From: a virus
Direction: 5' to 3' (one strand)
IMG/VR virus record: IMGVR_UViG_3300044712_001292
Span: 39,000-102,999 of that record
DNA length: 64,000 nucleotides
In this document: in pieces, positions 24,682 to 59,412 of the stretch
How the letters are laid out: every line of letters begins with the position of its first letter
Numbering within the stretch: the first letter of the stretch is position 1
The notes under the pieces: model-generated
What the model was told of the DNA's origin: nothing
The model's database searches: none
The model's input: the letters and a program-made list of their open reading frames with translations, nothing else
Translations under genes and position numbers: made by a program

Positions 24682-26198
24682 ACACGGCCGACCTCGCTCA
24701 TGGGCTCGTCAAGCACGCCGAAGAGGCTGGGGTGCTTGACGATAGTGAGGACCTCGACGCCGACCCGAGCTCTGCCGATCGTCGGCAGAAGCTGCGCATG
24801 GCCCTGTACGGAGTCGGTCTTCTGGGAGCTGGTGGTCTCGCTGCATGGGGCCTGTCTGGCGACTTGGGCAAGCGTCTCGGGTCGATGTTCGAAAGCGGCA
24901 AGCGTTCGCTGTTCGGAACGAGTTCCACCAGCGAAACGATGATGAACCCGCTGACGCACGGCCTCGCCGCTGGTGCAGCTGCAGCGGTTACGCGTAATGC
25001 TCCGGCCGGAAAAGCGCTGTCGGACATCGACGAGAGTGGACGTGTTAAGGTACGTCCTCTTCCGGAGAAGTCTGGAAGGCTGCCCGGCAAGGTGGAGGAG
25101 TTCGTTTCCGCCACAGGCCTCGTTCCGCGTACGTCTCCTGAGCGTGTTCGCAGCGACTACAACACGCTGTCATCGAAGGAAGCCCCTCAGGACCACTGGT
25201 TCGGGTCCATGCTTCGTACAGAGTCGCACCCGCCGTCGAGCGAGGCTGTTGATAACGTTCGTACGTTTCAGGACGAACTGAAGTCGAACGTAGCACCGCC
25301 CGCAGGAAACCTGACGGAAGTCCATAAGCCTACGCCTCCGAGCCCGTCTGCTGGCGCTAAGGCGATGAAAGACTACCAGAAGGCCCTCGCTGAGTACAAC
25401 ACGTACGTGCAGGCCAAGCAGGATGAGACCGTGCTGGGTAGCGTTCGCGCCGAACGCAACCCGCAGAAGTTCGTTGATGCCATAGCCGAGTACTCGCGCC
25501 TGCCTGCGAACACGCCGATGAACGCGGTCTTCTCCGGGGCCTTCTACCGCACGAAGGACGGCCTTATTCCGGTTGGTGCTACCGGGATGAACGCTGCCGA
25601 ACTGCTGCAGAACAAGAATAACATCGTGTTCCGGTCGCTGGATCCGAAGACAGGTGTTCTCAAGGATATACCCATCGACACGGTCGACACAGGCTTCGCC
25701 GGGTCCGAGATGGGGCGCGTACAGAGCCGCGGTCTTGCCCGCGACGCATCTGAACTCCTTGCCTCGCCGACAGAGAAGACGCGGCAGTTCCTGATTCAGC
25801 AGGCGCACGCTCCCAACGAACTGAGCCTGGCGCTGCAGCTGAAGGCCCTTGGCACCCCTGAGGCGGATACGCTGGGTCGCGCGCTGATGCAGAGCGGACT
25901 GCTTCGGCACTATACGGGGGCATACGCCAGCTCCCGCCATGTCCCTGATATGCGCTTCTCCCCGACGAACGAGGCGAGGCTCATCCAGCTGATTCGCGAC
26001 TACGTCCAGCCCGACACGCAGCAGCGTGCATCAGCAGTCATAGCGCTCGGTAAGGCTATGAACCAGCGCAGGTACCCGTCCGGCGTTCTTCCGCCGATCC
26101 GGCGTGCCGCTGTCGTCGGCGGGGCTACCGCAGCGCTGTCCGCCCTTCTGCAAACAGGCCTCGGGTACGGGGCGACGGGGATCCTCGGTCGTGATTAA
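24678..26198 (+). CDS. Hypothetical virion protein with Gly-rich hydrophobic segments at both ends
   Basis: 506 aa; N-terminal LVKHAEE. Confidence 0.7.
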   Translation: MNTADLAHGLVKHAEEAGVLDDSEDLDADPSSADRRQKLRMALYGVGLLGAGGLAAWGLSGDLGKRLGSMFESGKRSLFGTSSTSETMMNPLTHGLAAGAAAAVTRNAPAGKALSDIDESGRVKVRPLPEKSGRLPGKVEEFVSATGLVPRTSPERVRSDYNTLSSKEAPQDHWFGSMLRTESHPPSSEAVDNVRTFQDELKSNVAPPAGNLTEVHKPTPPSPSAGAKAMKDYQKALAEYNTYVQAKQDETVLGSVRAERNPQKFVDAIAEYSRLPANTPMNAVFSGAFYRTKDGLIPVGATGMNAAELLQNKNNIVFRSLDPKTGVLKDIPIDTVDTGFAGSEMGRVQSRGLARDASELLASPTEKTRQFLIQQAHAPNELSLALQLKALGTPEADTLGRALMQSGLLRHYTGAYASSRHVPDMRFSPTNEARLIQLIRDYVQPDTQQRASAVIALGKAMNQRRYPSGVLPPIRRAAVVGGATAALSALLQTGLGYGATGILGRD

Positions 26199-27486
26199 CA
26201 AACTCGTCACATCCAGTTCGTTCGACTTCGGCGATACGGCGTCACGCCTTGTTCCTCTGCATCGAGGTGGCGTCGACAGCCAGTGGATGCGGAAGCACGC
26301 ATCTGGCGATCTCTTCGCCAAAGAGATAGCCGGCTTACGTCCGAATAGCAAAGAGACGGTTCTGCACATCATCGCCTTAGGCGATGAGGAGACGTTCGGA
26401 CCGAATCGAAATGGTGACGCGTTCAGCAAGTCGGACAACGTGAACGCCCACGGGCTGTTCAAGACCATAGGCCATGTCTTCCGGAACCACAAGAATCAGG
26501 ACCCGGCTAAGTCCATCGGCAGAGTGCTCGCCACCGCTCACAACGATATCATGGATCGTGTCGAGCTGCTGGTAGCCCTCAATAACGATAAGTGCCGGAA
26601 CGAGGTCGAGGCCGTTAATAACGGTGAAGACATTCCGTTCAGCATGGGATCGTCGCAGGAGTTCGACGTCTGCTCCATCTGCAAGCATAAGGCTCCGACC
26701 GCAGCGGACCACTGCAGTCATATACAAAATATGCTCGGCGAGGTTCTCTCCGACGGTCGTAAGGTGTACATGAAGAACCCGAATCCGCGGTTCTTCGACA
26801 TCAGCGTCGTGTACAAGCCTGCCGACCGTATCGCCTATAGCCTGCGTAAGGTGGCGTCACACGGAGCGGCTGTCATCGGTGGTCACGAACTGGCGGAGAT
26901 GTTCGGCGTGTCCGCCGCCCCGTCGACAAAGGTCGCTACGATGCAGGCGCTCGCCGAGATGGTCAAAGAGATCCCCGCTGTCGCGCGTAAGGTAGCCTCT
27001 CCGCGGCGTGTTCGCGCAGACACAAAGCAGGAACTCTGCAAGGCAGCGGCTGCCTACGGTATCGACCAGCTTCTCGGTGCGCTAACCCGTTCCGGATTCA
27101 TGCTCGCCCCAGAAGACTTCGCGGAGATCGCTACCGGGGCTCCGGAATCCGACGCCGCTGTAGACGATGCCTGCGGGTGCGGGCTGCAGGATATTCTGGA
27201 CGACCACCAGCAGATCGAGGCGTTCGATCCGCCGCTCGCCCAGGACGTCATTCCTTTGTCGCAAGGCGCTCTGGACGACCTGTCCTGCTCGTGTGGGATG
27301 CAGCCTGCTGCAGCTCAGCGTCGGGCGCTCATTATTGTTATCCGCCCATCCGTCAAGGTAGCCTCTCACGCAGATCCTGTGGCCGTTCACGGTCTGTCGA
27401 TGCTCTATAAGCACTACAAGGTAGCATTCGCTCACGCCCACGCACACCGTCCTGACATGATCAGGTCAGTTGCGTCCACGTTCTAA
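26191..27486 (+). CDS. Prohead maturation protease (HK97/assemblin-like fold) with Zn-finger insert
   Basis: NRNGDAF, VFRNH..IG, FSMG, FFDISVV..PAD; CSIC..HCSH; lies just upstream of scaffold and MCP; GTG start overlaps the upstream stop. Confidence 0.8.
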   Translation: MINKLVTSSSFDFGDTASRLVPLHRGGVDSQWMRKHASGDLFAKEIAGLRPNSKETVLHIIALGDEETFGPNRNGDAFSKSDNVNAHGLFKTIGHVFRNHKNQDPAKSIGRVLATAHNDIMDRVELLVALNNDKCRNEVEAVNNGEDIPFSMGSSQEFDVCSICKHKAPTAADHCSHIQNMLGEVLSDGRKVYMKNPNPRFFDISVVYKPADRIAYSLRKVASHGAAVIGGHELAEMFGVSAAPSTKVATMQALAEMVKEIPAVARKVASPRRVRADTKQELCKAAAAYGIDQLLGALTRSGFMLAPEDFAEIATGAPESDAAVDDACGCGLQDILDDHQQIEAFDPPLAQDVIPLSQGALDDLSCSCGMQPAAAQRRALIIVIRPSVKVASHADPVAVHGLSMLYKHYKVAFAHAHAHRPDMIRSVASTF

Positions 27487-28772: not shown

Positions 28773-29192
28773 ATGTCGTACAAGCTCCTCAAGCAGGCTG
28801 CTGACCAGCTCGATAAGCTGGCCTCCGAACTGGAGGCCAGCGAGAAGGCCCTCGCCCAGGCTACCGCCCAGGCGAAGACCGCAGCTGCTACCCCCGCACC
28901 CGTCAAGCCCAGCGAGGACGAGAAGGCTGCTCGCCTGTCTCAGGCCAAGCTCGCTGCTGACAAGCTCCTCGAGGCAGGTCTGCTGAGCAGCGCTGAAAAG
29001 CGTGATCAGTTTGCTGCCGAAATCGTCGACCCGGTCGTGGCGATCCAGAAGATCGCCAAGCTGGCGGAGACGGTCTCTGTTCCTCGGCTGGGACGCGTCG
29101 TTGTCGACGAGACTCAGACCAAGGTCGCTAGCTCCGACGACGTCTGGGCTGGTCACGTGCGTTCCGCCCTGTCCCGTCTCAACCTCAAGTAA
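28773..29192 (+). CDS. Small scaffold/core protein
   Basis: 139 aa coiled coil with many K-x-A motifs; SD AGGA. Confidence 0.75.
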   Translation: MSYKLLKQAADQLDKLASELEASEKALAQATAQAKTAAATPAPVKPSEDEKAARLSQAKLAADKLLEAGLLSSAEKRDQFAAEIVDPVVAIQKIAKLAETVSVPRLGRVVVDETQTKVASSDDVWAGHVRSALSRLNLK

Positions 29193-29913: not shown

Positions 29914-30852
29914 ATGTCACAGACGAAGCTCAGCGCTGCTCAGTCCAATAAGGCCTTCTTCGGCCTGCTCGAAGCCGGGCAGACCAAGGAAGCCCAGGAT
30001 ATGGTGTCGGACTTCACCCGCATCCGTATCCGCGAGTCCAGCGCGTTCGAGAAGATCATGCCGGGTGTCAAGATCAGCAATGATCAGCTGACCCCGCAGC
30101 TCGACACCGATAAGAATGTCAAGCTGGTGGAGCGCGAGCCCGGCTCGCCCGCCGCCATCACCATTCCTCTCGGCACCCAGCCCATCCAGTACTACTTCCG
30201 CGGCGACCGCTACCCGGTGTTCTTCGACCGTATCACCACGGTCAAGTTCACCAAGGACGTCTCGGAACTCCGCACCTACTCCATGGACATCCGCCAGGTC
30301 CTCACCGACCAGGCTATCCTGGACATGGACTTCGAGTTCGACCGCAAGATGCTTGCGGCCGTCGACTCGATCGTGGGCGGTGAGGGCAGCACTGTCGCTG
30401 CTACCGGCGTCATCCAGAACCGCAAGATCGTCGACGCGCTCGGCATCACCCGCAACTCGCTCTTCGAGCTGCGCAAGATCCTGCCCTCGACCTTCGCGCA
30501 CCTGGAGACGGTGACCATCCTGGTCAACAGCATCACCATCAACGACGTCGCGAAGTTCGGTCGCGATGAGGTCGGTGGCGATCTGAGCCAGAACATGTTC
30601 ACCAACGGCTTCCAGGAGAAGAACCTCCTGGGCTGCAACTGGATCGTCAGCAACAAGACCGAGCTGATCCCGGACAACACCTTCTACCTGTTCGCCTCGC
30701 CCGAGTTCATCGGCAAGTCGTTCATCCTGGAAGAGGTCACCGTCTTCCTCGACAAGAAGGCCTACAACATCGAGTGGTTCGCCTACTGCGAGCGCGGCGC
30801 CTCGATCGGCAACCCGGCCTCGGTCGCCAAGGCCCGTATCGCGACGTCGTAA
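29914..30852 (+). CDS. Major capsid protein (HK97 fold)
   Basis: 312 aa; strongest codon bias; FTRIRIRESSAFEKIMP start and PEFIGK..IEWFAYCERGASIGN end; followed by a terminator. Confidence 0.8.
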   Translation: MSQTKLSAAQSNKAFFGLLEAGQTKEAQDMVSDFTRIRIRESSAFEKIMPGVKISNDQLTPQLDTDKNVKLVEREPGSPAAITIPLGTQPIQYYFRGDRYPVFFDRITTVKFTKDVSELRTYSMDIRQVLTDQAILDMDFEFDRKMLAAVDSIVGGEGSTVAATGVIQNRKIVDALGITRNSLFELRKILPSTFAHLETVTILVNSITINDVAKFGRDEVGGDLSQNMFTNGFQEKNLLGCNWIVSNKTELIPDNTFYLFASPEFIGKSFILEEVTVFLDKKAYNIEWFAYCERGASIGNPASVAKARIATS

Positions 30853-31647: not shown

Positions 31648-33159
31648 ACGTCGTTTAAGGCCCTGTTCGATCAAGCCGAAGATGCCAAGCGCGCGGGACA
31701 ACACGACCGCGCGCTTGGCATTTACACGTATATTCAGAGCATTTCCGGAAGGTCTGACGCGAACGTCCATGCCGCGATTCAGCTCGGGTCCCTGTGGAAG
31801 GACCTGGGCTGCATGGACACAGCTTTCAAGGTAACGTACGAGGCGGCGCAGTCCCTTGATGCGTTGGGTAAGTACAGCGCTTCCGGCGGTATCTACACGT
31901 CGTTGGCATGTGCGGTCCTCTACGCGCCGGGCGTCACGCTCGAGAGCTATAGCAAGCTGGTACGGCGCGTGACCATGTCGTTGGATATGTCGATGCCGAA
32001 GGTTTCGCATCTGAACCATGATATGACGACACAGCGCCGACTGCGTGTAGGCATCCTCAGCCCAGATATCTGTCTCCACTCATTAGCATATCTGGTGGCG
32101 CAGCCACTGATGCGTTTTACCCGTGTTACGCCGCATGAATTGTACTTATACCACTTACGACCATCCATCGATTCCGTTACGAAGCAGGTAGGGCAGGCGG
32201 CAACGAAGCTCGTCCACGTACACGGCATGACCGACGACGCCATCGTCGACGCCATTACGGCTGACCACATCGACGTTCTCATCGATCTGTCCGGTTACAC
32301 CGCTGAGAGTCGTCTGTCCGTCTTTTGCCGACGCCCGGCCCCGGTACAGATGGGGTGGATCAGCGGAATGATGACGCCGACCGGTCTTCCGTCGCTGCCG
32401 TATTTTATGACGGATTCGTATATGCTGCCCCCGCAGCTACCTACTGGTCTGTGCATACCGATCACCGCAAAGACGGCTCTCACGTATCATACGCTGCGCA
32501 GCCAGGAGCTCGACATCGGACAACTTCCGCGAGATAAGACCGGTGTTATAAACTTCGCGAGCTTCAACAACCCGTGCAAGATCAATAACGATGTCCTGCA
32601 GGCGTGGGCCAGGATCATGCACGGGGTGCCGGGCAGCAGACTGCACCTGAAAACGTACAGTCCCATGGATTCGGCACGTATCGCCGAGTTCATGGCTAAC
32701 GCCAAGGTCGATCCGGGACGACTCGTACTGATGCCCCAGCTGCCGTCATCGACAGACGTGCAGAAGTATTACAGCGAGCGCGTCGATATCTTCCTCGACG
32801 CGTGGCCTTGCAGTGGCTGCCTGACGACAGCGGAAGCTTTATGGATGGGCGTACCCGTCGTTTCGTACTACACTGACGTATTCTGTTCGCGGCAGTCACA
32901 TTCCATCCTCAACACTATCGGTGTTACCGATCTATCACACCCGACGGTCGACGGCTACGTACAAGCAGCCGTGAATTTGGCCCGAGACGTCGGACGCTTA
33001 CGCGAGCTGAGGTCCACCCTGCGCTCACGCATGTCTCAGAGCCCGCTGTGCGACTACGACAGCATGGCTCGTGAAATAGGAAACGCCGTCGTAACTGCGT
33101 GGCAGCACGCCGCTGCCGCACGCAAAGACTCCCTTGACGCCCTGAGAAAGGCAGCCTAG
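31645..33159 (+). CDS. SPINDLY/OGT-family (GT41) protein O-glycosyltransferase with short TPR-like N-terminus
   Basis: LRVGILSPD..HS, IDVLIDLSGYT, RPAPVQ, FASFNNPCKIN, DIFLD.WP.SG..TTAEALWMGVPVV. Confidence 0.92.
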   Translation: MTSFKALFDQAEDAKRAGQHDRALGIYTYIQSISGRSDANVHAAIQLGSLWKDLGCMDTAFKVTYEAAQSLDALGKYSASGGIYTSLACAVLYAPGVTLESYSKLVRRVTMSLDMSMPKVSHLNHDMTTQRRLRVGILSPDICLHSLAYLVAQPLMRFTRVTPHELYLYHLRPSIDSVTKQVGQAATKLVHVHGMTDDAIVDAITADHIDVLIDLSGYTAESRLSVFCRRPAPVQMGWISGMMTPTGLPSLPYFMTDSYMLPPQLPTGLCIPITAKTALTYHTLRSQELDIGQLPRDKTGVINFASFNNPCKINNDVLQAWARIMHGVPGSRLHLKTYSPMDSARIAEFMANAKVDPGRLVLMPQLPSSTDVQKYYSERVDIFLDAWPCSGCLTTAEALWMGVPVVSYYTDVFCSRQSHSILNTIGVTDLSHPTVDGYVQAAVNLARDVGRLRELRSTLRSRMSQSPLCDYDSMAREIGNAVVTAWQHAAAARKDSLDALRKAA

Positions 33160-33162
33160 TAT
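33134..33162 (+). promoter_or_regulatory. Putative promoter TTGACG-17-TAGTAT, 5 nt before ATG 33168
   Basis: Near-consensus sigma70-like; fixed-spacing family. Confidence 0.6.
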
Positions 33163-33167
33163 CCGCC

Positions 33168-33857
33168 ATGATCTTCAACGACGTTGACAAAACGAAGCCC
33201 TATACGGTACTACTCGTATCGACACCCGTACGACTCGCGTGCCTGAGCTTCAGCGGCCTCGCCCGTGGTGTGTACTACATCCAGGGTGACTTTCGAAGCA
33301 AGATTTCGAAGCCGCATGATAAGCGCCTCATACAAGTCGGGGCTGTAGCCCTGCGCTACGTCGTCGGTTCCGAGGAGTTCTCCATGGGCAAGCTGGTGAG
33401 CTCGGAAGACCTCCCGGACCGGACGAGCGCACTTCCCGCTTTCAGCGATATTCCCGAACAGAAAGAGGGATCCAACGCGACAGGTATCACCGTGGCTGGC
33501 CCCACGCTGCCCCCAGTGCGCGTGGTGGAGTACAGCGCCCCGGCCCCTCTCGAGTCCATCCCTGTCGTTCAGGAAGTGGCTGCACCCGTTGTACGCGTGG
33601 CACCCGAACCTCCCGTTACCCCCGAGCTCCCGCAGGCGGTGGTTGGCGCTCTTCCGAAACTGTCCGACGATGAGCCTATCGTTGTGCTGGATGACAAGCC
33701 AAAGAAGCGCCGTGGTCGTAAGCCCAAGTCCGCCCAATCCGTTGCCTCAGCGGCAGTAGAGGCTAAGCTCGATGGGCATGATCAAGACAGCGCAACTGCT
33801 GACGAGGGCGTTCCAGCAGCGCCTAGTGAAGACCGCGTCGATCACCAAGACAGCTAA
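33168..33857 (+). CDS. Hypothetical protein with disordered C-terminus (KKRRGRKPK)
   Basis: 229 aa ORF. Confidence 0.65.
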   Translation: MIFNDVDKTKPYTVLLVSTPVRLACLSFSGLARGVYYIQGDFRSKISKPHDKRLIQVGAVALRYVVGSEEFSMGKLVSSEDLPDRTSALPAFSDIPEQKEGSNATGITVAGPTLPPVRVVEYSAPAPLESIPVVQEVAAPVVRVAPEPPVTPELPQAVVGALPKLSDDEPIVVLDDKPKKRRGRKPKSAQSVASAAVEAKLDGHDQDSATADEGVPAAPSEDRVDHQDS

Positions 33858-33918
33858 GCGCTGGCTCGACGACCAGACCCTGGTCAAGCTGTGCGCTCGT
33901 ACCAGGAAGAGGAAGTAA
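33826..33918 (+). CDS. Putative 30-aa basic micropeptide MKTASITKTAKRWLDDQTLVKLCARTRKRK (below the ORF-track cutoff)
   Basis: GTG..TAA fills the intergenic gap, ends 3 nt before the next ATG and has two KTA motifs. Confidence 0.45.
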   Translation: MKTASITKTAKRWLDDQTLVKLCARTRKRK

Positions 33919-33921
33919 GCC

Positions 33922-34950
33922 ATGAGCGTTCCTACTCGTATCACCCTGGAGCGCTCTGCGAGTCAGGTGTTCCTGGCCTTTGACCAGGATATTACACGTG
34001 TGAGCGGCATCCTGCCGTGGGACAATGGGTTCACGCTGACCGTGAACGCTGCGCCCACGGCTATCACTGTCGTCACAAAAGTCGCGAACGGCATCTGGTT
34101 TCAGACGGCGTCGCCCTTCCTCGATTCAGACACCGTTCAACTGACGTATGCCGGTAGCAACCTCGTCGACGCAGCTACATCCACCGATCCCGTAGCTGCG
34201 TTTGCTGCCACGACCGCGCCTCCCTTCTGGCTGAACGGCAACCTGGTTCGCTCGGCCCTCGTGCCGCTGGCAGCACCGGATACGATCGTCATCACGCTGC
34301 GCGACCCCGTCGCATCGCTGACCAACAACCTCAAGAATGGCCTGGCAGTCACCATCAACGCCGTGGCTGTATCGCTGACGTCAGCTGTGGTGACAGGCAC
34401 GGGCCGAACAGTTACCATCGATTTGACGAATGACGTGTCGTATAACGACACTGTTGTCGTGACGTATACGTCGGGTTCTGGCGACTGGTACGCTGTCGAA
34501 GCGAATACGGCGGTCGCCTCGTTCACTGTCACGGCAGACAACGCCAGCGTGGTCGGTACCCCTGAGTCTGAGTATCCGCTCAGCACCGTCATCGCAGAAC
34601 CGCTGGCTATCACCGATAATGTGGTGACGGCGAAGCTCACGGTGTCGCTGAATAGCGTCGATCGCGAGATCGCATCCCGGTATGCTCCGACGTTCGATCA
34701 GGGCGGCTACTACGGCCTCCCTACCGTCAATCCGCCGACGGGCTTCTTCGTCCCGAGCAAGCAGCTGCCTATCCGCGACGGTCAGGTCTACGCTTACGCG
34801 TTCTCCATCCCCGGCAACCCTCAGTGGGCGTCGCTCGCTGCGGCCGAGTGGCTGTCGACCATGGTCGCCCGCATCGGCATCTCCCTGAACACTGCTAGGG
34901 CAACCGACCAGAGCATTACACTCGGCAACCGCACGATCACACAGGTGTAA
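33922..34950 (+). CDS. Ser/Thr-rich virion protein with two SwmB-like beta repeats
   Basis: DTVQLTY..VAAF and DTVVVTY..VASF repeats. Confidence 0.65.
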   Translation: MSVPTRITLERSASQVFLAFDQDITRVSGILPWDNGFTLTVNAAPTAITVVTKVANGIWFQTASPFLDSDTVQLTYAGSNLVDAATSTDPVAAFAATTAPPFWLNGNLVRSALVPLAAPDTIVITLRDPVASLTNNLKNGLAVTINAVAVSLTSAVVTGTGRTVTIDLTNDVSYNDTVVVTYTSGSGDWYAVEANTAVASFTVTADNASVVGTPESEYPLSTVIAEPLAITDNVVTAKLTVSLNSVDREIASRYAPTFDQGGYYGLPTVNPPTGFFVPSKQLPIRDGQVYAYAFSIPGNPQWASLAAAEWLSTMVARIGISLNTARATDQSITLGNRTITQV

Positions 34951-34953
34951 GCC

Positions 34954-36237
34954 ATGGAACACCCGAAGCTGGGGATCATGTACGTAAAGGTGGCGGCAGA
35001 GTTACCTTTCAATTGGTTGCGGCCTTTCGATTCTGCCCTCAACTCCGCCACGTTACAGTGGCTGACGCCCTATATCGCCACTAAGTCATCTGAGGGTGAG
35101 TCCCCAAGAGCCGCGCCGACACAGCAAGCTCCGACGCCCGCGCCAGCCCCTCGGCAGGCACAGCCGGCACCGACTCCTCCGGCGGCACCGGCTTCGCAGG
35201 CTGCGCCTACACCACCAGCCGCTCCGGCTGGTCCAGTGGCCCCGCCGCAGGCTCCCGCAGAAAGCCCAGTGCAGACGCTGCTGAACGGCGGTCGTACGGT
35301 GGACGGTACGTTCGTCCCGTTGACACTGCAGGAACGTACACGGCTGTGGAACAGCCTTGGACCGCCGGCTACTCCAGGCAAGCGTCCCGGCCTGTCTCCG
35401 GCACAGCGCGATATACTGCGTGCACGCGAGCAGGAGCGCCTCGACACAGATAGGATGATCGCTACAGAGGTAGCTCGTCAGAAGATCAACCGTTCGATCG
35501 CGAAGTCACGCGGTGAAGCCTATACCGGCCGGGATGACCAGTTCGGCATCTTTAATGACACTGACCCGAGAACCGGTAACCGTAAATTCGAGATAGACCC
35601 GAAAACGGGTAGGCCCGTGTCTGTTTACGGTGGGCTTTTACCACAGGCACCGTTGACGACCCCACAGCAGGTGCAGAGCTACGCGCTGAAGCGACTTGCC
35701 CCTCAGACAGCTACCCCAACCGCCGGTGCCGACGCTCGCGCTGTTGCCGGCATGATTCAGAAGGACTTCGAACAGAAGCAAGACGAGCGCCGCGCCCGGC
35801 TGTTGGCAAATTCGCGACGGTCGCCCTACGGCCCTGGTGCAGCACAGTGGACGCCGGGTGGCACGAACCTGACGAGGACGCAGGAAGCGAACGCCATAAA
35901 CCGCTACCTCGATAGCGAGCGCCGCCGCACAGACGGATGGGATCCGGACGAGGCTTGGCTCCAGTCGTCAGACGCACGGGAGCTAGGCAATCGGGCCCGT
36001 GTCGTGCGGCAGGGTGATCCGTCGATGACTGAGTATGACTCCATCCGTCAGGTCCAGGGTGCGCCAGCCCGCTTCGACGCGTATAAGGAGGAAGCCGCTC
36101 GTCGTATGGCTGGTCCTGCCGAATATCCCGCCCAGCCGCCTGTAGCAACTCAGCAGCTGCCTGCTGCGAAGCCTATGGCACCCACCCCGTTGGCGAAGCC
36201 GCCGCAGATCTCTCGTGCTGGATTCCGTCGTCAGTGA
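34954..36237 (+). CDS. Pro-rich hypothetical virion protein
   Basis: 427 aa; N-terminal LGIMYVKVAAE leader. Confidence 0.7.
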   Translation: MEHPKLGIMYVKVAAELPFNWLRPFDSALNSATLQWLTPYIATKSSEGESPRAAPTQQAPTPAPAPRQAQPAPTPPAAPASQAAPTPPAAPAGPVAPPQAPAESPVQTLLNGGRTVDGTFVPLTLQERTRLWNSLGPPATPGKRPGLSPAQRDILRAREQERLDTDRMIATEVARQKINRSIAKSRGEAYTGRDDQFGIFNDTDPRTGNRKFEIDPKTGRPVSVYGGLLPQAPLTTPQQVQSYALKRLAPQTATPTAGADARAVAGMIQKDFEQKQDERRARLLANSRRSPYGPGAAQWTPGGTNLTRTQEANAINRYLDSERRRTDGWDPDEAWLQSSDARELGNRARVVRQGDPSMTEYDSIRQVQGAPARFDAYKEEAARRMAGPAEYPAQPPVATQQLPAAKPMAPTPLAKPPQISRAGFRRQ

Positions 36238-36267
36238 CGAGAGTATGCATGGCACGTAAGGCCATCT

Positions 36268-37131
36268 ATGATCACCCCTATCGAAGTAACTCCGTCATCC
36301 ATAAGTAACCCGGTTAAGGTTACAAGGACTGCGGCTACCTCGCGCAAGCAGTTGGTCTTCAAACTCCTGGATGCAGAGGGTCGCCCTATCGATCTGCGGG
36401 AAGAAGTTCCGAACCCGCCGGCACGGAAGCCGACCTTCGGCACAGAACCGCCTGCGCAGGGGTCGAACGTCACCGTCCGGCTGCGTGCTCGCGATGGCGA
36501 ACTTTACGGACCAGTGCAGTTCGATGTCACCGGGCAGCTGCTTGACGAGCGTGGTTTCGTCGAGTTCCTGTTGACTGAGACCGAGACAAGCAAACCGGGT
36601 GTCTATCAGGCTGAGATCGGCCGATTCGCAGGTTCATGGCTCGTTGATACCTGGCCCGTCCTCGTCGTCGTCGAACCGTCCGTCTTTCAGACACTGAGCG
36701 GCAACGGTCCTATCACGATCCCGGAAATCCGGCTGGCCCTTCTGGACAATAACAACGGAGCTGACGGTGCCCCCTTCAACAACCTGCTGACAGACGTCGA
36801 ATTCTCTGACGTCGAGATCGCAAACGCGATTCGTCGTGTTGTCGACATGTGGAACGAGACGCCGCCCAACGTGATGTACTTCAGTACAAACGACTTCCCT
36901 TACCGCTACTGGTGGATTATGGGGACGTCGGCCATCTTGCTGCGGGCTGGGGCTGCCCGGTACCGCCGTAACAGGCTGGCGTACTCGGCAGGCGGCGTGT
37001 CTATAGACGACCAGTCGAAGGCTGAGGAATACGAGCAGGTCGGCGAGGCCCGTATGCGCGAGTTCAAGGAGTGGATGATGTCGGAGAAGGTCCGCATCAA
37101 TATGGGCTACTGCTGGGGCAACGGGATCTGA
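36268..37131 (+). CDS. Probable head-tail adaptor/neck protein
   Basis: N-terminal beta domain plus helical C-terminal domain (RNRLAYSAGGVSIDD); position between head and tail genes. Confidence 0.6.
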   Translation: MITPIEVTPSSISNPVKVTRTAATSRKQLVFKLLDAEGRPIDLREEVPNPPARKPTFGTEPPAQGSNVTVRLRARDGELYGPVQFDVTGQLLDERGFVEFLLTETETSKPGVYQAEIGRFAGSWLVDTWPVLVVVEPSVFQTLSGNGPITIPEIRLALLDNNNGADGAPFNNLLTDVEFSDVEIANAIRRVVDMWNETPPNVMYFSTNDFPYRYWWIMGTSAILLRAGAARYRRNRLAYSAGGVSIDDQSKAEEYEQVGEARMREFKEWMMSEKVRINMGYCWGNGI

Positions 37132-37136
37132 CCTTC

Positions 37137-37946
37137 ATGCCCGAACGCGTATTCCTTCGCATCAATGTCGACACGCACTTCAGCGTGCTGACGACTCAGC
37201 GGGTGACCGTTTCCTGGGCGATGGAGCCGTCGTTCGTAGAGCCCGGCCCGTGGACGTTTACGCTGCAGCGCGGGTACGCGCCGACGGAAGACGCGTGGGA
37301 GGACATCGCAACCACCGTAGACCAGCCCTGGCTCTACGACAACAGGCCGACAGTCAATGTCGTCGGTACGTCGGTCTACTACCGGATCAAGCTGGTCGAC
37401 GGCAACGGGGTCGTCTACTATTCGCAGGTACAGACGACGTCAGCGTACTGGACGAGGTACGACTGGTCGCTGGCGAAAGAGATCATCCGCAAGGAGACGC
37501 TGCTGCTTCGGAAGAAGACGGGCGTACGCGGCGTCCTGCTGAAGCGCCGTTACTTCGGCGAGCGCTGCCCCGTATGCACGAACCCGACGACTGGGCAAGT
37601 GGAGTCCAGCACCTGCACGACATGCTATGGCACGGGGATCGTCGGCGGCTATTACCCGCCGTTTGAGTACTGGGTCACAATGAATGCTACGCAACGCATG
37701 CGTAAGCTAACGGCGGAGCAGGGCGTCATCGCCTCCACCATCGAAAGCGTCCGTGCGCTCGCGTACCCCGTCCCCGAAGGGAACGATGTGTGGGTGAACG
37801 GTGAGACAAATCAGCGGTATTATGTGACACCGGATATTAAGGTTATCGCCCGTCACCGTGGCATCAGCCTTGTCCTCGATCTGGTGCTGAACGAGGTACC
37901 GACCGACCACGTCATCTACCAGTTCCCGACGCTATGCGCCCCATAA
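37137..37946 (+). CDS. Probable neck/head-closure protein with Zn finger
   Basis: CPVC...CTTCYGTGIVGGY; position. Confidence 0.6.
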   Translation: MPERVFLRINVDTHFSVLTTQRVTVSWAMEPSFVEPGPWTFTLQRGYAPTEDAWEDIATTVDQPWLYDNRPTVNVVGTSVYYRIKLVDGNGVVYYSQVQTTSAYWTRYDWSLAKEIIRKETLLLRKKTGVRGVLLKRRYFGERCPVCTNPTTGQVESSTCTTCYGTGIVGGYYPPFEYWVTMNATQRMRKLTAEQGVIASTIESVRALAYPVPEGNDVWVNGETNQRYYVTPDIKVIARHRGISLVLDLVLNEVPTDHVIYQFPTLCAP

Positions 37947-38043
37947 TTCGGAAGCCGAAGGTGCAGCCCGCACAGGCGCCTCCGAGCGAGGCTTCACGGG
38001 TGGTATTAGCCAAGCCTGCGCCTAAGCTGGTACCTAAGCTACC

Positions 38044-38856
38044 ATGCCGCTGACGAACGACGGAAATGAGCGCGACGTCAGGCTGCGTCCTGACTCGGCC
38101 CCTATTCCGGGTGCCGACGAGAACCTGAATGGTCCTATACCGCCGGGTGCTCCGTGCGACACGGTTGGCACGCAGACAGACCTGCCGGCGAGCGGATACA
38201 CCGTTCAGACGCCATCTGCAACGTTCGAGCAGCAGTACGACTGGTCCGCCCTGGCTGACGTGTGCCCGCGCGGATTCGACATGAGGACGGTAGAGACGGT
38301 CCTCTTCAAGATCGTTGTTTCGCACTTCTCAAACCCCGACCGCATCATCAACCCAGACCTCAAGTCGCTGATCTACACGCCGAACCCGACCACCACCAAG
38401 CTGCGTGTTGCGCTCAATACCGCTTTTGATCTGCCGACGTCGACGAAGCTACCTGCAGTCATCCTGAAGCGCGGACAACAGGAGTTCGAGCGTATTGGCA
38501 TCAACGACAGCAGTGAACAGCGCGTACTTGAGCCCGAGATCATACCGTTCGTCAGGCGCGTGAAGGGTACGCATCTGCTGATGTCGGTATCTTCGGTGCC
38601 CGGGGAGACCGAGAACCTGGCGAACGAGCTCGTCGACGCCTTTACATGCCTATCGCCCGTCCTTCGTTCCGAGCTGCCCTTCGCCGACTTTGAAGTCGCC
38701 GGAGTTACCGAGCTTCAGATCTCGGATGAGCTCGGTAATAGATCAGTCGTAGCCGTGCAACTCGTTTACAAATATGAGCTTGGGTGGACTCTGCGCAAGT
38801 CTACGCCCCTTGCAAGCCGACTTGCGCTTCGTACACTCTTTAACGTCCAGAGCTAG
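38044..38856 (+). CDS. Probable tail terminator/completion protein
   Basis: LPAVILKRG motif; immediately upstream of the sheath. Confidence 0.55.
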   Translation: MPLTNDGNERDVRLRPDSAPIPGADENLNGPIPPGAPCDTVGTQTDLPASGYTVQTPSATFEQQYDWSALADVCPRGFDMRTVETVLFKIVVSHFSNPDRIINPDLKSLIYTPNPTTTKLRVALNTAFDLPTSTKLPAVILKRGQQEFERIGINDSSEQRVLEPEIIPFVRRVKGTHLLMSVSSVPGETENLANELVDAFTCLSPVLRSELPFADFEVAGVTELQISDELGNRSVVAVQLVYKYELGWTLRKSTPLASRLALRTLFNVQS

Positions 38857-54265: not shown

Positions 54266-54639
54266 CGTACTCAGCTACCATCCAGAAACAGGTAACGGCG
54301 TCGTACACGAGCTGTCCGACACTACCGGCCATCCTGCAGATGTCGGTTCAGAGCGTTGTCGGTTTCTTGGACCTCGGCCTGTTCGTCTACCGGATAGACC
54401 CTGATACGGGATCGGAAGCGTTCAGCCACGTAGCGACCGCCTGCGACCTGCAGGACTACCTCTATAATGGCACATCTGGTACGTTCGTCCGTAGAGCGTC
54501 GATGAGCAAGACCTACTTCGACGCCTCGGCCGCTAACGCCGGCATCGCGGAGATCGAGCTCGCGATTCAGAGCCTATGCAGCATCATGGAACAGATCAGC
54601 GTTCTATCGGCTCCGACAACCGTAACCATCAGTTCGTAG
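54262..54639 (+). CDS. Hypothetical virion protein
   Basis: 125 aa, GTGA-coupled. Confidence 0.6.
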   Translation: MTYSATIQKQVTASYTSCPTLPAILQMSVQSVVGFLDLGLFVYRIDPDTGSEAFSHVATACDLQDYLYNGTSGTFVRRASMSKTYFDASAANAGIAEIELAIQSLCSIMEQISVLSAPTTVTISS

Positions 54640-54896
54640 CCGTAGACCACGCGTACCTCGTCCGTCTAGCGCAGGATGATCGGTACGCGTGGATGTCATC
54701 GATACGGGCTCTTGCGACGTTCAGACCCGCGTCGACAGGCTGCTGCGGGAAAACGGCTATGCCACCTATACCGAACGAGGTGTTCGGTCGCATCGCCAAT
54801 AACCCGGCATTCGTAGATGAGCTGCTGGTCTTGAAGGCCAAGCTCGGGGCTGATCGCCTGATCGTCAACGTATCTGGCTATCGAGACACCTTGTAG
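54576..54896 (+). CDS. Hypothetical protein (GCCG motif), start uncertain
   Basis: Fills the space up to the convergent gene. Confidence 0.45.
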   Translation: MQHHGTDQRSIGSDNRNHQFVAVDHAYLVRLAQDDRYAWMSSIRALATFRPASTGCCGKTAMPPIPNEVFGRIANNPAFVDELLVLKAKLGADRLIVNVSGYRDTL

Positions 54897-56074
54897 AGCG
54901 TCACCGTACGCCCGTCAGCCAGGCGCTTGACGTGCAGAGTCCCGCGAGACGGCGAGTAGTACGACATCGTGCACGACGGCGCCCCGCTCTCCGTCAGCTT
55001 GCAGCGGATATCCTGAGCGATCTCATCTCCAGCAGGTGCGGCCGCGTGCTCCTCTTCAGCACGCAGATAATCGTCCGGTGTTCCGAACTCCGGAGCATGC
55101 TTGACGACATGCGTGTCGCGGTTTTCGGGCGACGTCCACTCCGCAGACTTGTCCTGCTTACGAGCCTTCGCCTCCATCTCGTTGGCTATCTCGTGAGCCT
55201 GTGCGTACGGCATGCCTTGTGCCCGCATGAGAGACCGTTCCACGATCTCATGAAGGACGATCTTCCGCTTGTCGCTCTCTTGCAGGTCTTTCTCGACCCA
55301 GATCTGCTTCTTGGGGACGTAGTCGTTGGCCTCGCTGTTGCTACCGCCGATGAAATCGATGTCCTTCTTGTTACGGATCTGGTTGCCATCGACCTCGACG
55401 ATCTCGGTGCCATCGGGAAGCAGTTCTTTGGCAGACTTGACGAAAGGCACCTGTATGCCGATATCGCGTAGCTGGCCCAGCATGACCTGGGTTATCTCTT
55501 CGACGCGGTTATCGATCTCGTTAGACGACTCCTGCTTGCTCATCCACGACGCCGCGAACAACGCCGGATCGGAGGTCTCCTTCGTATTCGGAGGGATGTC
55601 CTTGACGAAGGAGAGGGTCTGTGGCGCGAATGAAATGCCTTCGTCATTGAGAACGACGCGGATGTACCGCTTGATCGGATCCGCCCAGCGGTCCTGCAGG
55701 CGGCTCACTGGAGCCGGGTCTGCCATCTCGATCTCGGTTACAGCCCACGCCACGTCGATAGCCGGTGGGATGTCACGGTACGACCCGACGCCACGACGGC
55801 AGAGCGCGTTGCAGACCTCATCGAACACCTCGACGTCCGTGTAAACCAGATCGGTCGTCAGAGCCGTTATCATCCCCATAAGCTGATCGTAGACACGACG
55901 GGGCATCTCCACGTCGTAGTCCTGCTTGATCTGCATCTGAATGGTCTCGCCCTCCCAATTGAGAGCCTCCGTACCATACGAACGCAGCAACAGGCTGACG
56001 AGAACGGTACCGAACGTCGGCTTTTCGCCGGTCAGGTACGGAGCAGCACGCCTCTTGTAAGTCGCGAGGATCAT
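54878..56074 (-). CDS. Three-domain protein: N-terminal domain, HExxE-H metal-binding domain and toxin/RNase-like C-terminal domain, separated by KSA
   Basis: KSA at 55438-55430 and 55150-55142; IVLHEIVERSLM..AH; HVVKHAPEFG..YY..G..VTLYK. Confidence 0.7.
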   Translation of the reverse strand: MILATYKRRAAPYLTGEKPTFGTVLVSLLLRSYGTEALNWEGETIQMQIKQDYDVEMPRRVYDQLMGMITALTTDLVYTDVEVFDEVCNALCRRGVGSYRDIPPAIDVAWAVTEIEMADPAPVSRLQDRWADPIKRYIRVVLNDEGISFAPQTLSFVKDIPPNTKETSDPALFAASWMSKQESSNEIDNRVEEITQVMLGQLRDIGIQVPFVKSAKELLPDGTEIVEVDGNQIRNKKDIDFIGGSNSEANDYVPKKQIWVEKDLQESDKRKIVLHEIVERSLMRAQGMPYAQAHEIANEMEAKARKQDKSAEWTSPENRDTHVVKHAPEFGTPDDYLRAEEEHAAAPAGDEIAQDIRCKLTESGAPSCTMSYYSPSRGTLHVKRLADGRTVTLYKVSR

Positions 56075-56090
56075 GTCCGCGCGGACAGAC

Positions 56091-57044
56091 TTAGCTGAGG
56101 ATCTTGGACAGGACGTCCGCGTCCGTGCGGGGCAGCGTCGGCAGTACGTCGATCAGCTCGTCGGTCGACATGGTCGACAGCGCAGGGGATACCGCCGCGA
56201 GGGCTTCCTTCCGCAGTTGACGTACGTCGAGCTCGTGACCGTTGACCAGCGACACGGTGTACCGCTGCTCGTGAGCCACCTTGGTCAGCTCGCTGGCGAT
56301 GAGGGCGTCACCGATGGCTTCTTCGGGCAGGGTGCCCGTGAAGCCGGCTAGGGTGTCGTAGGTGTCGACCGCAGCACAGGCCACCTTGACGAAGTCAGGG
56401 TTCGACCGGAGAGACGGGTCGCTGTACGCACTCTCGATGACCTGAGCGACCTTCGCGAACGCCTCCGAGTTATCCGCCTGCAGCGACTGCTCACGCTCGA
56501 TCAGCAGGTTGTCGAGGCCATCCTCGTCGAAGGCACCGAGGGCGGCGGCCTTCTCGAGGTAGCGCTGGACGTACTCGGGCAGCACCACGTGGTGCTGAGC
56601 CGCCTTATGCAGCAGGTGCTGGGCGGCATCGTGCCGGATGTCGTAGGGGAAGCTCGTACGGCTGTCATAGAAGGCTATGGCAGCCGTTGTCGTCGAAGCC
56701 GGATCATAGGCAGCGAACTTACGCACGGTACGCGCGCCCTTGGCGTCATTGATGTCGATGCAGACCGCGTAATCCGAGTCGGTCAGCTCAGGTACCGTCA
56801 TCAGCTCCGCGTACTTGCTCTTCACACGCGCACACTCGTTCTCGATCTTCCAGAACCGGGCGTGGTGGATGACGTCTTCCATCTCCGATCCAGACGCCTG
56901 CTTGATCAGGGCCTTGACGAAGGAGACATAGGTTGACTCCTTGGTGCGGAAGTCATAGTTGCCATCCTCCGAGATCGAAGCGGACTTGACGAAGTCCGGC
57001 GCACCGGTAGCGCGAATGACCTTGGCGACAGAGGGAGTTATCAT
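56091..57044 (-). CDS. K-x-A-rich hypothetical (head-associated) protein
   Basis: Likely start MITPSV at 57044; KSA, KQA, KAA and KVA motifs. Confidence 0.7.
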   Translation of the reverse strand: MITPSVAKVIRATGAPDFVKSASISEDGNYDFRTKESTYVSFVKALIKQASGSEMEDVIHHARFWKIENECARVKSKYAELMTVPELTDSDYAVCIDINDAKGARTVRKFAAYDPASTTTAAIAFYDSRTSFPYDIRHDAAQHLLHKAAQHHVVLPEYVQRYLEKAAALGAFDEDGLDNLLIEREQSLQADNSEAFAKVAQVIESAYSDPSLRSNPDFVKVACAAVDTYDTLAGFTGTLPEEAIGDALIASELTKVAHEQRYTVSLVNGHELDVRQLRKEALAAVSPALSTMSTDELIDVLPTLPRTDADVLSKILS

Positions 57045-59412
57045 GAGGCTAGACCCTAAGGCTATAGCTGCCCGTGTGGGGTTGAATGGCGAACGTCCTG
57101 TGCCTAGCATCGTAGATTGCCCGCTATGCCATTCCAGTGGGAAGTTCGAGATACGCTCTGTCAACTATGTCCAGTGCCGTGCCTGCGGATTCATCGGGGA
57201 CTTCCTCCAGATGCATGCCGCGGTTCGAAACGAGAGCCTTTCGGCGACGATAGCCTCCCTGACGTCATCCGGGCTGCTCGACATGCAGGGGACCGAAAAG
57301 GCGTACCTGGGGAACGAGGTCGTACAGAGTTGGCTTCGGGCGGTCGTTGAAGACGGGGCCGCTACCCTCAAGAACGGGGCGCCAGGCAGCTTTCTAGCCA
57401 TCCTGAGCCATTATAACTGCCGCCTGGGGGTTCAGATACCTGAATCGCTGTATCGGCACGCTATACCCCTGCTGCAGTCGCGATTCGATAATATCGAGTT
57501 CCCGCTCCCCGCCGAAGCCGATCCGGTCTTCCGGTGGTGGGGCAAGAACGGGGCTATCGCTCTGCCAACTTATGACGGGTCTCGTATTATAGGGTTCTGG
57601 TTAATCACCGTAAAAGGCAACAACTACCTCCCCATCGTCACAAGCAAGACAGGCGCTGCACTCGGCCGCATACCGTCGTTAGGGGACGACGCCGTCTTCG
57701 TGATCGATAACGCTATCGAGGCTCTGCGGCTGACCGTGTGGTCCTCAGTCCACTGCTCTCGGCCGTACGGGTTCGTCGTACCGGTGGGCCTGCAGGACGC
57801 TCTCGAGCACTATGCTGCCAAACGCGTCATCTACTGGAGCATGACCGACGACACGCGCTGGATCATGCGCTCGCGTCACTGCGCACATAACCTGGTTCTG
57901 CTGAACAGCTCCGTGGGTCGAGGGTCCGGTCCTTTCCCCTGCAATGGCGATTTCCCGCACTTCATGGATATCGTCAAGAACTCTGCGGTAAGCACCTATC
58001 ACGGTATTGCCAAGCACCTGCTCACCATCCCTCGTCGACAGGCAGGTGAGGCCATAGCCACAGAGCCGATCGAGCCTACGGACAGGGCCCGCATCATCGC
58101 GCAGGCTACAGGTGAAGATGCAAGGTTTCTGCAGCAACTGTTTTCATCGCAGTCGCAGACGGTCGTCGACTGGTGCGGTACGCCGGTCACCGAGACGACG
58201 CGCGGATGGGTTACAAAAGGCAAGCTGATCAGCGCGGTGATGTTCTATATGGACGAAGTGCGCCCGCACGACACGGGTACGGACGCCACGGTGACCGGGT
58301 CGGTCGTCTACGACGGAAAGTCGGTGGCCTTCCAGGAGAAGCTTTCGACGTTACGTAAGAACACGGCGCAGTGGCTTGAGAGCTTCGTCGTCAAGAAGTT
58401 TGGAGCTATCTGTTTCATAGAACGCGCATGGCGCCCAAGGCTGCTCGAACTGTCGCAGCGTTTCAGAAAACCGAACGCCGTTATGCCGGAACAGCGGTAC
58501 GGCTGGTCAGGCAAGACGCTGCGTATGCCGTTCTTCATCGTCGACGACAAGGACGTTACGCCATCATACGAGATTGTGGACGGTCCGCGCATACCGCTAC
58601 CGTCACCGCTGTCGGCCGCCGAGCGTGACGCCTTCCAGAGCGAGTCGTTCTGTAAGATATTCCTGATGCTGCTACGCAATATGTTGAAGGCCAGAGACGG
58701 GGCTTCACACGGGTGGCTCCTCGTGAATCAGCCAACGCTGATAGACCGCGTAGCCTACGCGCTTGGTATGGACATTCAGTTCAACCCGTCGGATGCGGTA
58801 CTGCTGATGCAGCGGACTGAGCCAGTCATTCGCCCAACCTCGTTGACCGATAGCGTCACGCGCGTACTAGCACAGCGGCCGACGCACGCGTTGATCAGCG
58901 TCGACACGGCTACAGCGAAGATAGCCCACATATTTCACAGCTGGCCTATCATGTCCGTCACATCAGCGGTCGAGTACCAGCCCCTGCGTGGTGTGTTCTT
59001 TGCCGTGCACCACAGCTTATCGCAGCCACGGACGATCAGAAACCACCGTGACTGCGCTGTACTCGTGTCAGAGTGCTTCGATGTGAAAGGCGCTCTGAAC
59101 TACGCTGGACTCGAACTCGATCGCGAGGTCCTGGAATCCGAACAAAGCACGGCGACTAAATTGATGCGGTTTCTCGTAGAGCAGCACCTGGCAGGGGAGC
59201 TGGAGGCTGTGCCTACTGCGGACGGCATACGGGTGCGTACCTCGGATGTCGTAACATGCGTGACTGGCACACAGGTTGAGGTGCCCCCTCTGAAGGACAT
59301 CACCCGTCAGCTGGCATCCGGGGAGTTCCTTGTTGGAAATACCGAGTCGGAGTGGGAGCTGAAGACCGCCATGTGGTCTTTCTACACCTCCCTCGTCATG
59401 GCTGCGCGTTAA
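57043..59412 (+). CDS. Primase-like protein with N-terminal CHC2-type Zn finger
   Basis: CPLC..C.AC.GD; degenerate Toprim-like VFVIDNAIEAL; SD GGAG before ATG 57043. Confidence 0.6.
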   Translation: MRLDPKAIAARVGLNGERPVPSIVDCPLCHSSGKFEIRSVNYVQCRACGFIGDFLQMHAAVRNESLSATIASLTSSGLLDMQGTEKAYLGNEVVQSWLRAVVEDGAATLKNGAPGSFLAILSHYNCRLGVQIPESLYRHAIPLLQSRFDNIEFPLPAEADPVFRWWGKNGAIALPTYDGSRIIGFWLITVKGNNYLPIVTSKTGAALGRIPSLGDDAVFVIDNAIEALRLTVWSSVHCSRPYGFVVPVGLQDALEHYAAKRVIYWSMTDDTRWIMRSRHCAHNLVLLNSSVGRGSGPFPCNGDFPHFMDIVKNSAVSTYHGIAKHLLTIPRRQAGEAIATEPIEPTDRARIIAQATGEDARFLQQLFSSQSQTVVDWCGTPVTETTRGWVTKGKLISAVMFYMDEVRPHDTGTDATVTGSVVYDGKSVAFQEKLSTLRKNTAQWLESFVVKKFGAICFIERAWRPRLLELSQRFRKPNAVMPEQRYGWSGKTLRMPFFIVDDKDVTPSYEIVDGPRIPLPSPLSAAERDAFQSESFCKIFLMLLRNMLKARDGASHGWLLVNQPTLIDRVAYALGMDIQFNPSDAVLLMQRTEPVIRPTSLTDSVTRVLAQRPTHALISVDTATAKIAHIFHSWPIMSVTSAVEYQPLRGVFFAVHHSLSQPRTIRNHRDCAVLVSECFDVKGALNYAGLELDREVLESEQSTATKLMRFLVEQHLAGELEAVPTADGIRVRTSDVVTCVTGTQVEVPPLKDITRQLASGEFLVGNTESEWELKTAMWSFYTSLVMAAR

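Follow-up and report, generated by a model that had tools for sequence, protein, structure and literature searches.

A phage protein with a helical carrier, a zincin-like module and a colicin-like RNase module bordered by K-x-A motifs: a candidate substrate of the head maturation protease

A prediction for phage-type polyvalent proteins, which combine domains such as MPTase and PBECR, is that they travel in the virion, enter the host by injection and are set free by autoproteolysis (Iyer, Burroughs, Anand, de Souza, Aravind 2017, PMC5512222). In colicin-like members of the BECR fold, the active site usually comprises a His in the first helix, often following a Lys, and a hydroxyl residue (Ser/Thr) on the last strand, and the characterized members mostly cut tRNAs. 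Head proteases trim N-terminal propeptides, cut propeptides at multiple sites and, in SPN3US, trim themselves; those of phiKZ and SPN3US, with the motif A-X-E, also act on ejection proteins, and packaged enzymes are trimmed in the head. Temperate phages reportedly carry MuF-toxin fusions, of MuF/portal with PBECR or another toxin, as Jamet et al. are said to have described in 2017. MuF-type fusions with BECR-Tox3/DUF6883 appear in a 2026 preprint. Here we describe a 398-residue protein (hereafter the target) from IMG/VR virus record IMGVR_UViG_3300044712_001292, in which an all-α N-terminal domain (N), a zincin-like module (M) and a colicin-like RNase module (C) meet at two K-S-A sites. The window analyzed comprises 64,000 nucleotides (positions 39,000 to 102,999 of the record) and forms the final 64 kb of one contig of 102,999 bp from an uncultured tailed phage with a G + C content of ~60%. 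Its proteins include a myovirus-type sheath, an HK97-type major capsid protein and a head maturation protease.

We propose that the target is a modular polyvalent phage protein whose K-x-A joints are cut by the head protease, and that it is packaged and injected, with the RNase acting in the host. We would give this reading about an even chance, and the alternatives are taken up below alongside the evidence that bears on each.

Domain borders and K-x-A joints

The target divides into residues 1–215, 216–311 and 312–398, the first two parts both ending in KSA (coordinates of all features are collected in Table 1). The gene is real, with a G + C content at third codon positions (GC3) of 0.76, a length conserved over 21 homologues and conserved synteny. 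The initial annotation of this sequence had described a 215-residue N-terminal part ending in FVKSA (residues 211–215), a middle part with the pattern VDG..IR..DF.GG..IWVE..LHEIVER..LM..Y.AH that ends in DKSA (residues 308–311), and the pattern W...HVVKHAPEFG...TVTLYK in the last 87 residues, and all of these are present exactly as described in the translation. It had further placed the domain borders at the KSA sites. An AlphaFold2 model built with 22 homologues has a mean predicted local distance difference test score (pLDDT) of 79.7, and the only stretches below 50 are residues 210–216 and 306–314, both of which are KSA sites; on the model, therefore, the KSA sites are real domain borders.

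The joints are conserved in the more general form K-x-A. At the N–M border the motif is found in 15 of the 16 N-M-C homologues, the exception (P0008) reading KLG. At the second joint Lys309 and Ala311 are invariant in 22/22 aligned homologues, and also in P0023 and P0024, while the surrounding residues vary (RKQD-KSA-EW, GNP-KEA-EW, VQP-KTA-EW, LYS-KTA-EW and FPQ-KEA-DW). A word-indexed search gave 21 homologues, to which later searches added P0023, P0024 and P0168, and domains were mapped in 24 proteins that bear C, the target among them. Of their 40 inter-module linkers 39 contain K-x-A, as compared with 26% in composition-matched shuffles, and the density of the motif in linkers is 14 times that in domain interiors (Fisher p 2e-30, with relatedness ignored). 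In P0005 an extra module between M and C has KTA on both flanks, and long spacers hold several copies, four in the low-complexity spacer of P0020 and five in P0023. Since K-x-A flanks the additional module, is multiplied in long spacers and keeps its Lys and Ala invariant amid variable linkers, its pattern across these sequences is that of a recognition site and not of linker composition.

The head protease postulated in the initial annotation is encoded in the window, where it is identified by a PHROG match, and head proteins carry the K-x-A mark. The protease itself has nine K-x-A against 3.2 expected from shuffles of its sequence, including those at residues 238, 249, 276, 296, 313, 418, and 439; seven lie directly after its catalytic part, mostly as [RK]-K-V-A-[ST], and this tail recalls the self-trimmed C-terminal propeptide of SPN3US gp245. 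K-x-A within the first 30 residues is found in 12 of the 22 genes at 3200–30852 as compared with 3 of the 62 other genes in the genome (p 1.7e-6), and one of those three is the target's neighbor. The N-terminal tag in this head module, the capsid protein included, takes the form hydrophobic-x-K-x-A-[AS]-[ED]. Herpesvirus assemblin, which is structurally related to phage prohead proteases, has the cleavage site (V/L)-x-A↓S, which K-x-A resembles in its small residue followed by Ser/Ala. From these sequence patterns, K-x-A is most likely the site of the head maturation protease, and our guess is that the cut would fall after its Ala.

Alternatively, the target could be an uncut multi-domain cytoplasmic protein that acts, say, in early host takeover or in RNA processing, with K-x-A serving as a docking or targeting motif or being a linker habit of the lineage. 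In favor of this reading, the gene is located outside the head module, divergent from the primase-like gene, and its product lacks an N-terminal tag; the N4 virion RNA polymerase, moreover, is a polyvalent protein that is packaged unprocessed. This explanation sits poorly with a Lys and an Ala that persist in disordered, variable linkers and multiply in long spacers, and with the concentration of the motif in the protease tail, a scaffold-like protein and the N termini of head proteins, as in T4-like and phiKZ-like phages. We therefore consider it unlikely.

The zincin-like and RNase modules

In the model, the M module consists of three strands (residues 224–228, 244–246, and 257–261) and two long helices (266–286 and 290–305), a topology that fits the description of MPTase domains as a three-stranded sheet followed by two C-terminal helices bearing the metal ligands. 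The top VIA-align matches over residues 214–310 were PprI/IrrE (Z 5.5), SPRTN (5.0) and abylysin (4.7), with further matches to lugdulysin, Wss1, CapP, jannalysin, anthrax LF and two "predicted zincin" structures; in all, about a dozen zincin families match at Z 3.9–5.5, each below the caution line of the tool. M has no Pfam match, and a profile search of PDB sequences returned none. In the Atlas, M lies closest to clusters of phage proteins that belong to no Pfam family, the membership of one cluster being 597 (87% viral), and the Atlas score against an IrrE-like cluster (0.75) serves as a lead only.

The candidate site of M is spread over both helices, with H275-E276-I-V-E279 on the first and His294 and Glu301 on the second. 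Its conservation was followed through an exhaustive HMMER search, which gave 2,478 related cluster representatives, and domains were mapped in 166 proteins (150 listed matches together with the first homologue set). M occurs without N in 46 of these 166, and 44 of the 46 carry it as a tandem M-M. The His/Glu set is invariant in all 18 single copies. In the second copies of the M-M proteins Glu276, Glu279, His294, and Glu301 are kept in 44/44 and His275 in 43/44, and over all 62 active-type copies Glu279, His294, and Glu301 are invariant, with His275 present in 61. The first copies are degenerate, the Glu276 position being mostly Leu/Met and the second His mostly Leu, Tyr or Val; the single M copy of N-M-C proteins is always of the intact type. 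That the set is kept in second and single copies and lost in first copies argues for a genuine catalytic or metal site, and a His/Glu/His metal site is conceivable. The initial annotation had called this segment a metallo-domain; the zincin-like fold and the invariant His/Glu residues speak for that description, whereas Z scores of at most 5.5 and a non-canonical HExxE motif leave it provisional.

The M-M proteins (P0044–P0162, outside the window), at ~215–250 amino acids (aa), look from their sequences like active/inactive pseudo-dimers of a large unnamed phage family, and elsewhere M-M units are fused to KTSC, NUDIX, kinase-like and peptidase domains. M is also found at ~714–800 of Rctr197k_173 (virus Rctr197k, KX853510.1; locus L009, 4859–10978), a 2039-aa polyvalent protein recorded as a "hypothetical protein", encoded beside a structural-protein gene and containing InPase (E 7e-30), DUF7178 (E 6e-64) and 2H phosphoesterase domains. 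By the company it keeps (InPase, 2H, NUDIX and others), M is therefore like the modules of polyvalent proteins.

A zincin-like module with an invariant His/Glu set could itself cut the joints, in line with the proposal of Iyer et al. that the remaining domains of a polyvalent protein are set free by its MPTase domain; a host protease might equally be responsible. N-C homologues that have no M keep a K-x-A-E-W joint, and in locus L006, where the target gene lacks M, the neighbor is still rich in K-x-A (this 10.8-kb fragment was not searched for M elsewhere), so that K-x-A processing does not appear to depend on M, and M was rejected as the K-x-A protease. Many head proteins are moreover marked with K-x-A, and no second M was found in this genome by a hidden Markov model search at E up to 1. 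Cleavage of the joints by M or by a host enzyme, in place of the head protease, is thus very unlikely in our view.

The C module model shows helices at residues 316–330 and 333–345 followed by strands at 352–360, 366–374, 379–384, and 390–395, i.e. a pre-α and an α-helix with four antiparallel strands. VIA-align of residues 312–398 matched the CdiA-CT structure 8ey4_A at Z 8.0 (root mean squared deviation 2.8, 77/88 residues), a score only just at the tool's caution line, although the match list is homogeneous: the colicin D tRNase (5znm_B, 1tfk_A) follows at 5.8, BrnT at 5.5, and RelE, YafQ and CdiA-CT NC101 at 4–5. In Foldseek, too, the highest-ranking matches were CdiA-CT 8ey4 and the colicin D tRNase (probabilities 1.00, 0.95, and 0.97), at E 0.012–0.17 with the whole protein as query. 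Lys325, His326, and Thr390 are invariant in 22 sequences, and in the model they lie in helix 316–330 and strand 390–395, where they occupy the expected active-site positions of a colicin-like BECR domain. The initial annotation had likened this end of the protein to a small RNase-type toxin tip, which holds at the level of fold (the CdiA-CT match, the Lys-His pair and the Thr). We found no description in the literature of the substrate of the PDB 8EY4 toxin.

At the level of sequence, no Colicin_D, PBECR1–5, Ntox or EndoU_bacteria model matched C at E up to 1, and a profile search of the PDB gave none. Atlas feature scores against Colicin_D, Ntox35 and EndoU (0.80–0.81) are below the meaningful range, and PAAR and PT-HINT toxin tips appear as Atlas structural neighbors (a lead only). 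Because the fold matches and no curated sequence model does, C is, on the model, a new sequence family of a known, colicin-like BECR fold. The family was recovered only on the N carrier in region-restricted and profile searches, a weak result given that the search depends on shared words. Two near-invariant cysteines, Cys358 and Cys368 (54968–55006, minus strand), flank the first β-hairpin of C and, judging from the sequences, might be linked as a disulfide or act as a metal clip, an unusual feature in a cytoplasmic RNase domain.

Processing might also hold with a different purpose for the parts, where C would be an RNase or RNA-binding module serving the phage programme, in the manner of T4 RegB or of inactive MuF-C, and M a structural or regulatory module without catalysis. 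RegB and MuF-C are phage precedents with the BECR fold, M deviates from HExxH, the C family is seen only in this phage lineage, and no immunity gene was found adjoining the C-bearing gene. Set against these points, toxins (CdiA-CT, colicin D, and BrnT) are the closest matches among solved structures, the catalytic-type Lys-His and Thr of C are invariant, and so is the M set, which is lost in the first copies of M-M proteins. We rate this explanation as possible but doubtful.

The carrier family, gene setting and proposed mechanism

The N domain, modeled alone, has ten helices (pLDDT 94.9, predicted template modeling score 0.90). It belongs to a large stand-alone family of ~210–250-aa proteins, none of whose 64 members examined matches Pfam or PHROGs. 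Foldseek against the PDB gave a best E of 1.1 and a wide VIA-align search a best Z of 4.6, to RNA polymerase ε/δ-like small helical proteins, a match that is not credible. One match in BFVD was to an uncharacterized phage protein (E 9e-7). Architecture and synteny only are what suggest a role as carrier.

The 166 mapped proteins include 95 with N only (~210–250 aa), 8 N-C and 16 N-M-C. In seven metagenome loci with target homologues (L001–L007) the gene order is that of the window, with tail-fiber genes, an open reading frame (ORF) of ~90 aa, the target, its neighbor and the primase-like gene, and in L006 and L007 the target's syntenic place is occupied by a protein that ends directly after the N domain. 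Since syntenic relatives at this place beside the tail-fiber genes take the forms N only, N-C, N-M-C, and N-M-X-C, M and C are best described as accessory cargo. As far as the searches reach, N is the conserved core, whereas M, C and the extra module of P0005 are gained and lost. In P0011, M appears to have been lost through an internal deletion. The extra module of P0005 (on a 193-kb JGI contig) comprises ~90 residues (305–393; …DPVHAWRAKEGLELIHEEP…YANWQLMTAEQK…) and has no Pfam match. A suggestion made at the outset, that N homologues might carry different C-terminal cargo, was borne out: N does stand alone at the same place and its cargo does vary, although over a narrow range, being always C with or without M and one extra module.

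In blastn/tblastn searches of 50,697 phage records the sole match was the M module in virus Rctr197k, and none was obtained in the same records with P0047 and P0100 (N only) or with P0046 (M-M); IMG/VR scans with the alignment and with one N-only protein gave no relative. Pfam and PHROGs searches with the target, the 64 N-family members and the M-M proteins returned nothing usable. Profiles of the whole protein and of the N, M, and C alignments, run against PDB sequences, produced only chance matches or none. Within the 103-kb genome the target is single copy, with no paralogue of N, M or C elsewhere.

The target is the second gene in a two-gene minus-strand unit (57044 to 54878), convergent with the tail-fiber operon and divergent from the zinc-ribbon, primase-like gene. 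A scan of 54400–57500 for σ70 promoters and terminators gave nothing above chance. The first gene of the unit, the upstream neighbor, most likely starts at Met41 (57044), from which its N terminus reads MITPSVAKVIRATGAPDFV-KSA-S, with the tag ...DFV-KSA-S and K-x-A at residue 20. It contains 11 K-x-A against 2.2 expected, and its homologues 12–14 against ~3, with seven invariant Lys/Ala pairs. Its synteny with the target holds in L001–L004 and the N-only locus L006, five of the seven loci. To judge from its sequence, it may be a scaffold or core-type protein destined to be cut to pieces.

Several observations concern the surrounding genes. With the most likely starts of the neighbor (57044) and the primase-like gene (~57016), the two 5′ ends would overlap by ~29 nt, and each promoter would sit inside the other gene. 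In L006 an extra gene (4940–6055) between the neighbor and the N gene encodes a 371-aa Pro/Ala-rich, low-complexity protein with a C-terminal transmembrane helix and a poly-Lys/Arg tail. The ~90-aa ORF that ends the tail-fiber operon carries the motif VNHPYL..LA.DP.Y.WM.SL.PLR...CCGQ...LK..L.AD.LIVN..G.R and is found in L001–L007, N-only loci included. Finally, three head-module proteins that have no family match and are strongly enriched in K-x-A (23395–24681, 19336–21522, and 28773–29192, the last being the shorter scaffold-like protein) are candidate degraded core or scaffold proteins, or further multi-part cargo.

Table 1. Coordinates and supporting details of the target, its parts and other features of the window (K-x-A counts are observed against expected)
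Feature	Position	Strand	Details
Target gene, N carrier - K-S-A - M module - K-S-A - C module	54878..56074	-	398 aa; ORF and translation
N domain, residues 1-215, all-alpha putative carrier	55430..56074	-	large stand-alone family, ~210-250 aa
First joint, K213-S214-A215	55430..55438	-	context PFV-KSA-KE; pLDDT <50 at 210-216
M module, residues 216-311, zincin-like	55142..55429	-	three strands and two long helices
Candidate metal/active site, H275-E276-x-x-E279-R280 ... A293-H294 ... E301	55172..55252	-	two C-terminal helices
Second joint, K309-S310-A311	55142..55150	-	context QD-KSA-EW; pLDDT <50 at 306-314
C module, residues 312-398, colicin-like BECR-fold RNase domain	54881..55141	-	VIA-align, Foldseek, topology
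K325-H326 Lys-His dyad, candidate catalytic His	55097..55102	-	invariant; first C-module helix
T390-V-T392-L-Y394-K395, last beta-strand	54890..54907	-	T390 invariant; T392, Y394, K395 >=90%
Small conserved ORF, ~90 aa	~54630-54896	+	last of tail-fiber operon; 19-nt convergent overlap with target 3' end
Upstream neighbor, 317 aa from M41	56091..57044	-	first of two-gene unit; ORF spans 56091-57164
Primase-like gene	56959-59412	+	probable start ~57016
Head maturation protease	26104..27486	+	phrog_18299, E 2.9e-10, residues 100-245
Major capsid protein	29914-30852	+	phrog_2522, E 3.7e-7; TKEA at residue 25
Scaffold-like K/A-rich protein	28773-29192	+	K-x-A 8 vs 2.8, p <0.004
Scaffold-like K/A-rich protein	27548-28747	+	K-x-A 14 vs 10.2, not significant
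Head-module protein without family match	23395-24681	+	K-x-A 12 vs 4.2
Head-module protein without family match	19336-21522	+	K-x-A 7 vs 2.4

What the sequences and models show is the modular make-up of the target, its folds and conserved residues, K-x-A at almost every joint and the enrichment of the motif in head proteins, and all the computational checks suggested in the initial annotation turned out in favor of it. We infer cleavage of the target, by the head protease and at the K-x-A joints, with packaging, injection, activation and toxicity to follow. The precursor would enter the prohead, possibly together with its K-x-A-studded neighbor, where the head protease would cut it at K213-S-A215 and K309-S-A311. 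The released modules would remain in the head and pass into the host with the DNA, and the RNase of the C module would then cut host RNA, for which tRNA is the most likely target by family precedent.

Several points weigh against this mechanism. The assignment of K-x-A as a protease site is drawn from its enrichment, and the homologues are related, so that the linker counts overstate independence. The target gene is not part of the head module, being encoded on the other strand beside a primase-like gene. It has no K-x-A in its first 30 residues; residues 7–10 read KRRA and some homologues have KRA or KKA at 7–9, but within a confident helix. At the second joint, the hydrophobic residues seen ahead of most N-terminal tags are missing. 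Neither effector assignment is backed by a Pfam, PHROG or PDB sequence match, the fold scores of M are all below Z 6, and its motif is HExxE and not the canonical HExxH with Glu/His/Asp as third ligand. The phage is known only from metagenomes. Lastly, the target loci yielded no immunity gene confined to those that bear C: the ~90-aa convergent ORF was ruled out for this role, being present in N-only loci too, and the upstream neighbor is not cargo-specific, being also present in the N-only locus L006. As no immunity gene was found, the model requires either that the uncut precursor be inactive or that the RNase be tolerated at a late stage of infection.

A more elaborate scenario draws on the at least 27 tRNA genes predicted by ARAGORN at genome positions 32243–38441, a short way upstream of the window start, among which are three each for tRNA-Arg, tRNA-Leu, and tRNA-Ala. 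A virion-delivered anticodon nuclease could destroy the host tRNAs on entry while the phage set sustains phage translation ("deplete and replace"). The nuclease would be set free from an inactive precursor by a head protease of new, assemblin-like K-x-A specificity and would be accompanied by a new HExxE...H class of mini-metalloproteases. The link between the tRNA array and a delivered tRNase is speculation, and the scenario as a whole seems to us quite improbable.

If the proposed head-protease mechanism is correct, phages would deliver several effectors as one small polyprotein, freed and perhaps activated by the capsid maturation protease and not by a built-in peptidase. This would account for the safe production of an RNase toxin in the absence of an immunity protein, and K-x-A joints would offer a simple sequence rule for packaged cargo in this lineage. 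The analysis also defines three unnamed families: a widespread all-α carrier without a match among solved folds, a mini-zincin-like family with HExxE...H...E and a colicin-like RNase sequence family. The mini-zincin-like family would, from its sequences, be very common in phages, usually as an active/inactive tandem.

Comparison with known systems

In common with polyvalent proteins, the target has unrelated effector-type domains on one chain, adjoins virion genes and belongs to a family whose architecture turns over fast, and its M module is shared with a 2039-aa polyvalent protein that carries InPase and 2H. It differs in being small (398 aa), in having modules that match no Pfam MPTase, PBECR or LPD model, in its HExxE...H arrangement as opposed to HExxH...E, and in a carrier that is a new family. 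Furthermore, its joints share the motif of the head proteins, which would point to the head protease, and not autoproteolysis, as the means of processing.

The C module shares with colicin D and CdiA-CT (1tfk, 5znm, 8ey4) the fold, the topology of pre-α, α and four strands and the Lys-His of the first helix. Unlike these toxins, it has no detectable sequence similarity to them and no adjacent immunity gene was found, and it is carried by a phage protein. With respect to processing, the T4 capsid-targeting sequences and gp21 provide a comparison. As in T4, phiKZ, and SPN3US, a three-residue motif recurs in the propeptides at protein N termini, among scaffold or core proteins and along the protease tail; here, by contrast, the motif is K-x-A without a final Glu, sites lie between folded modules, and the target has no N-terminal tag.

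Polyvalent proteins are the nearest concept described so far, followed by ejection proteins trimmed by the head proteases of T4- and SPN3US-type phages and by the MuF-toxin fusions, where a conserved, head-associated phage carrier likewise bears a variable C-terminal RNase toxin. There is, however, no Phage_Mu_F match in the target or in the 64 N-family members and no downstream DUF4926-type immunity gene, and the target has in addition a zincin-like module and protease-type joints. The target differs from all these systems in its new carrier family, two effector modules outside the curated families, the non-canonical HExxE...H...E site and joints that carry the motif of the head proteins.

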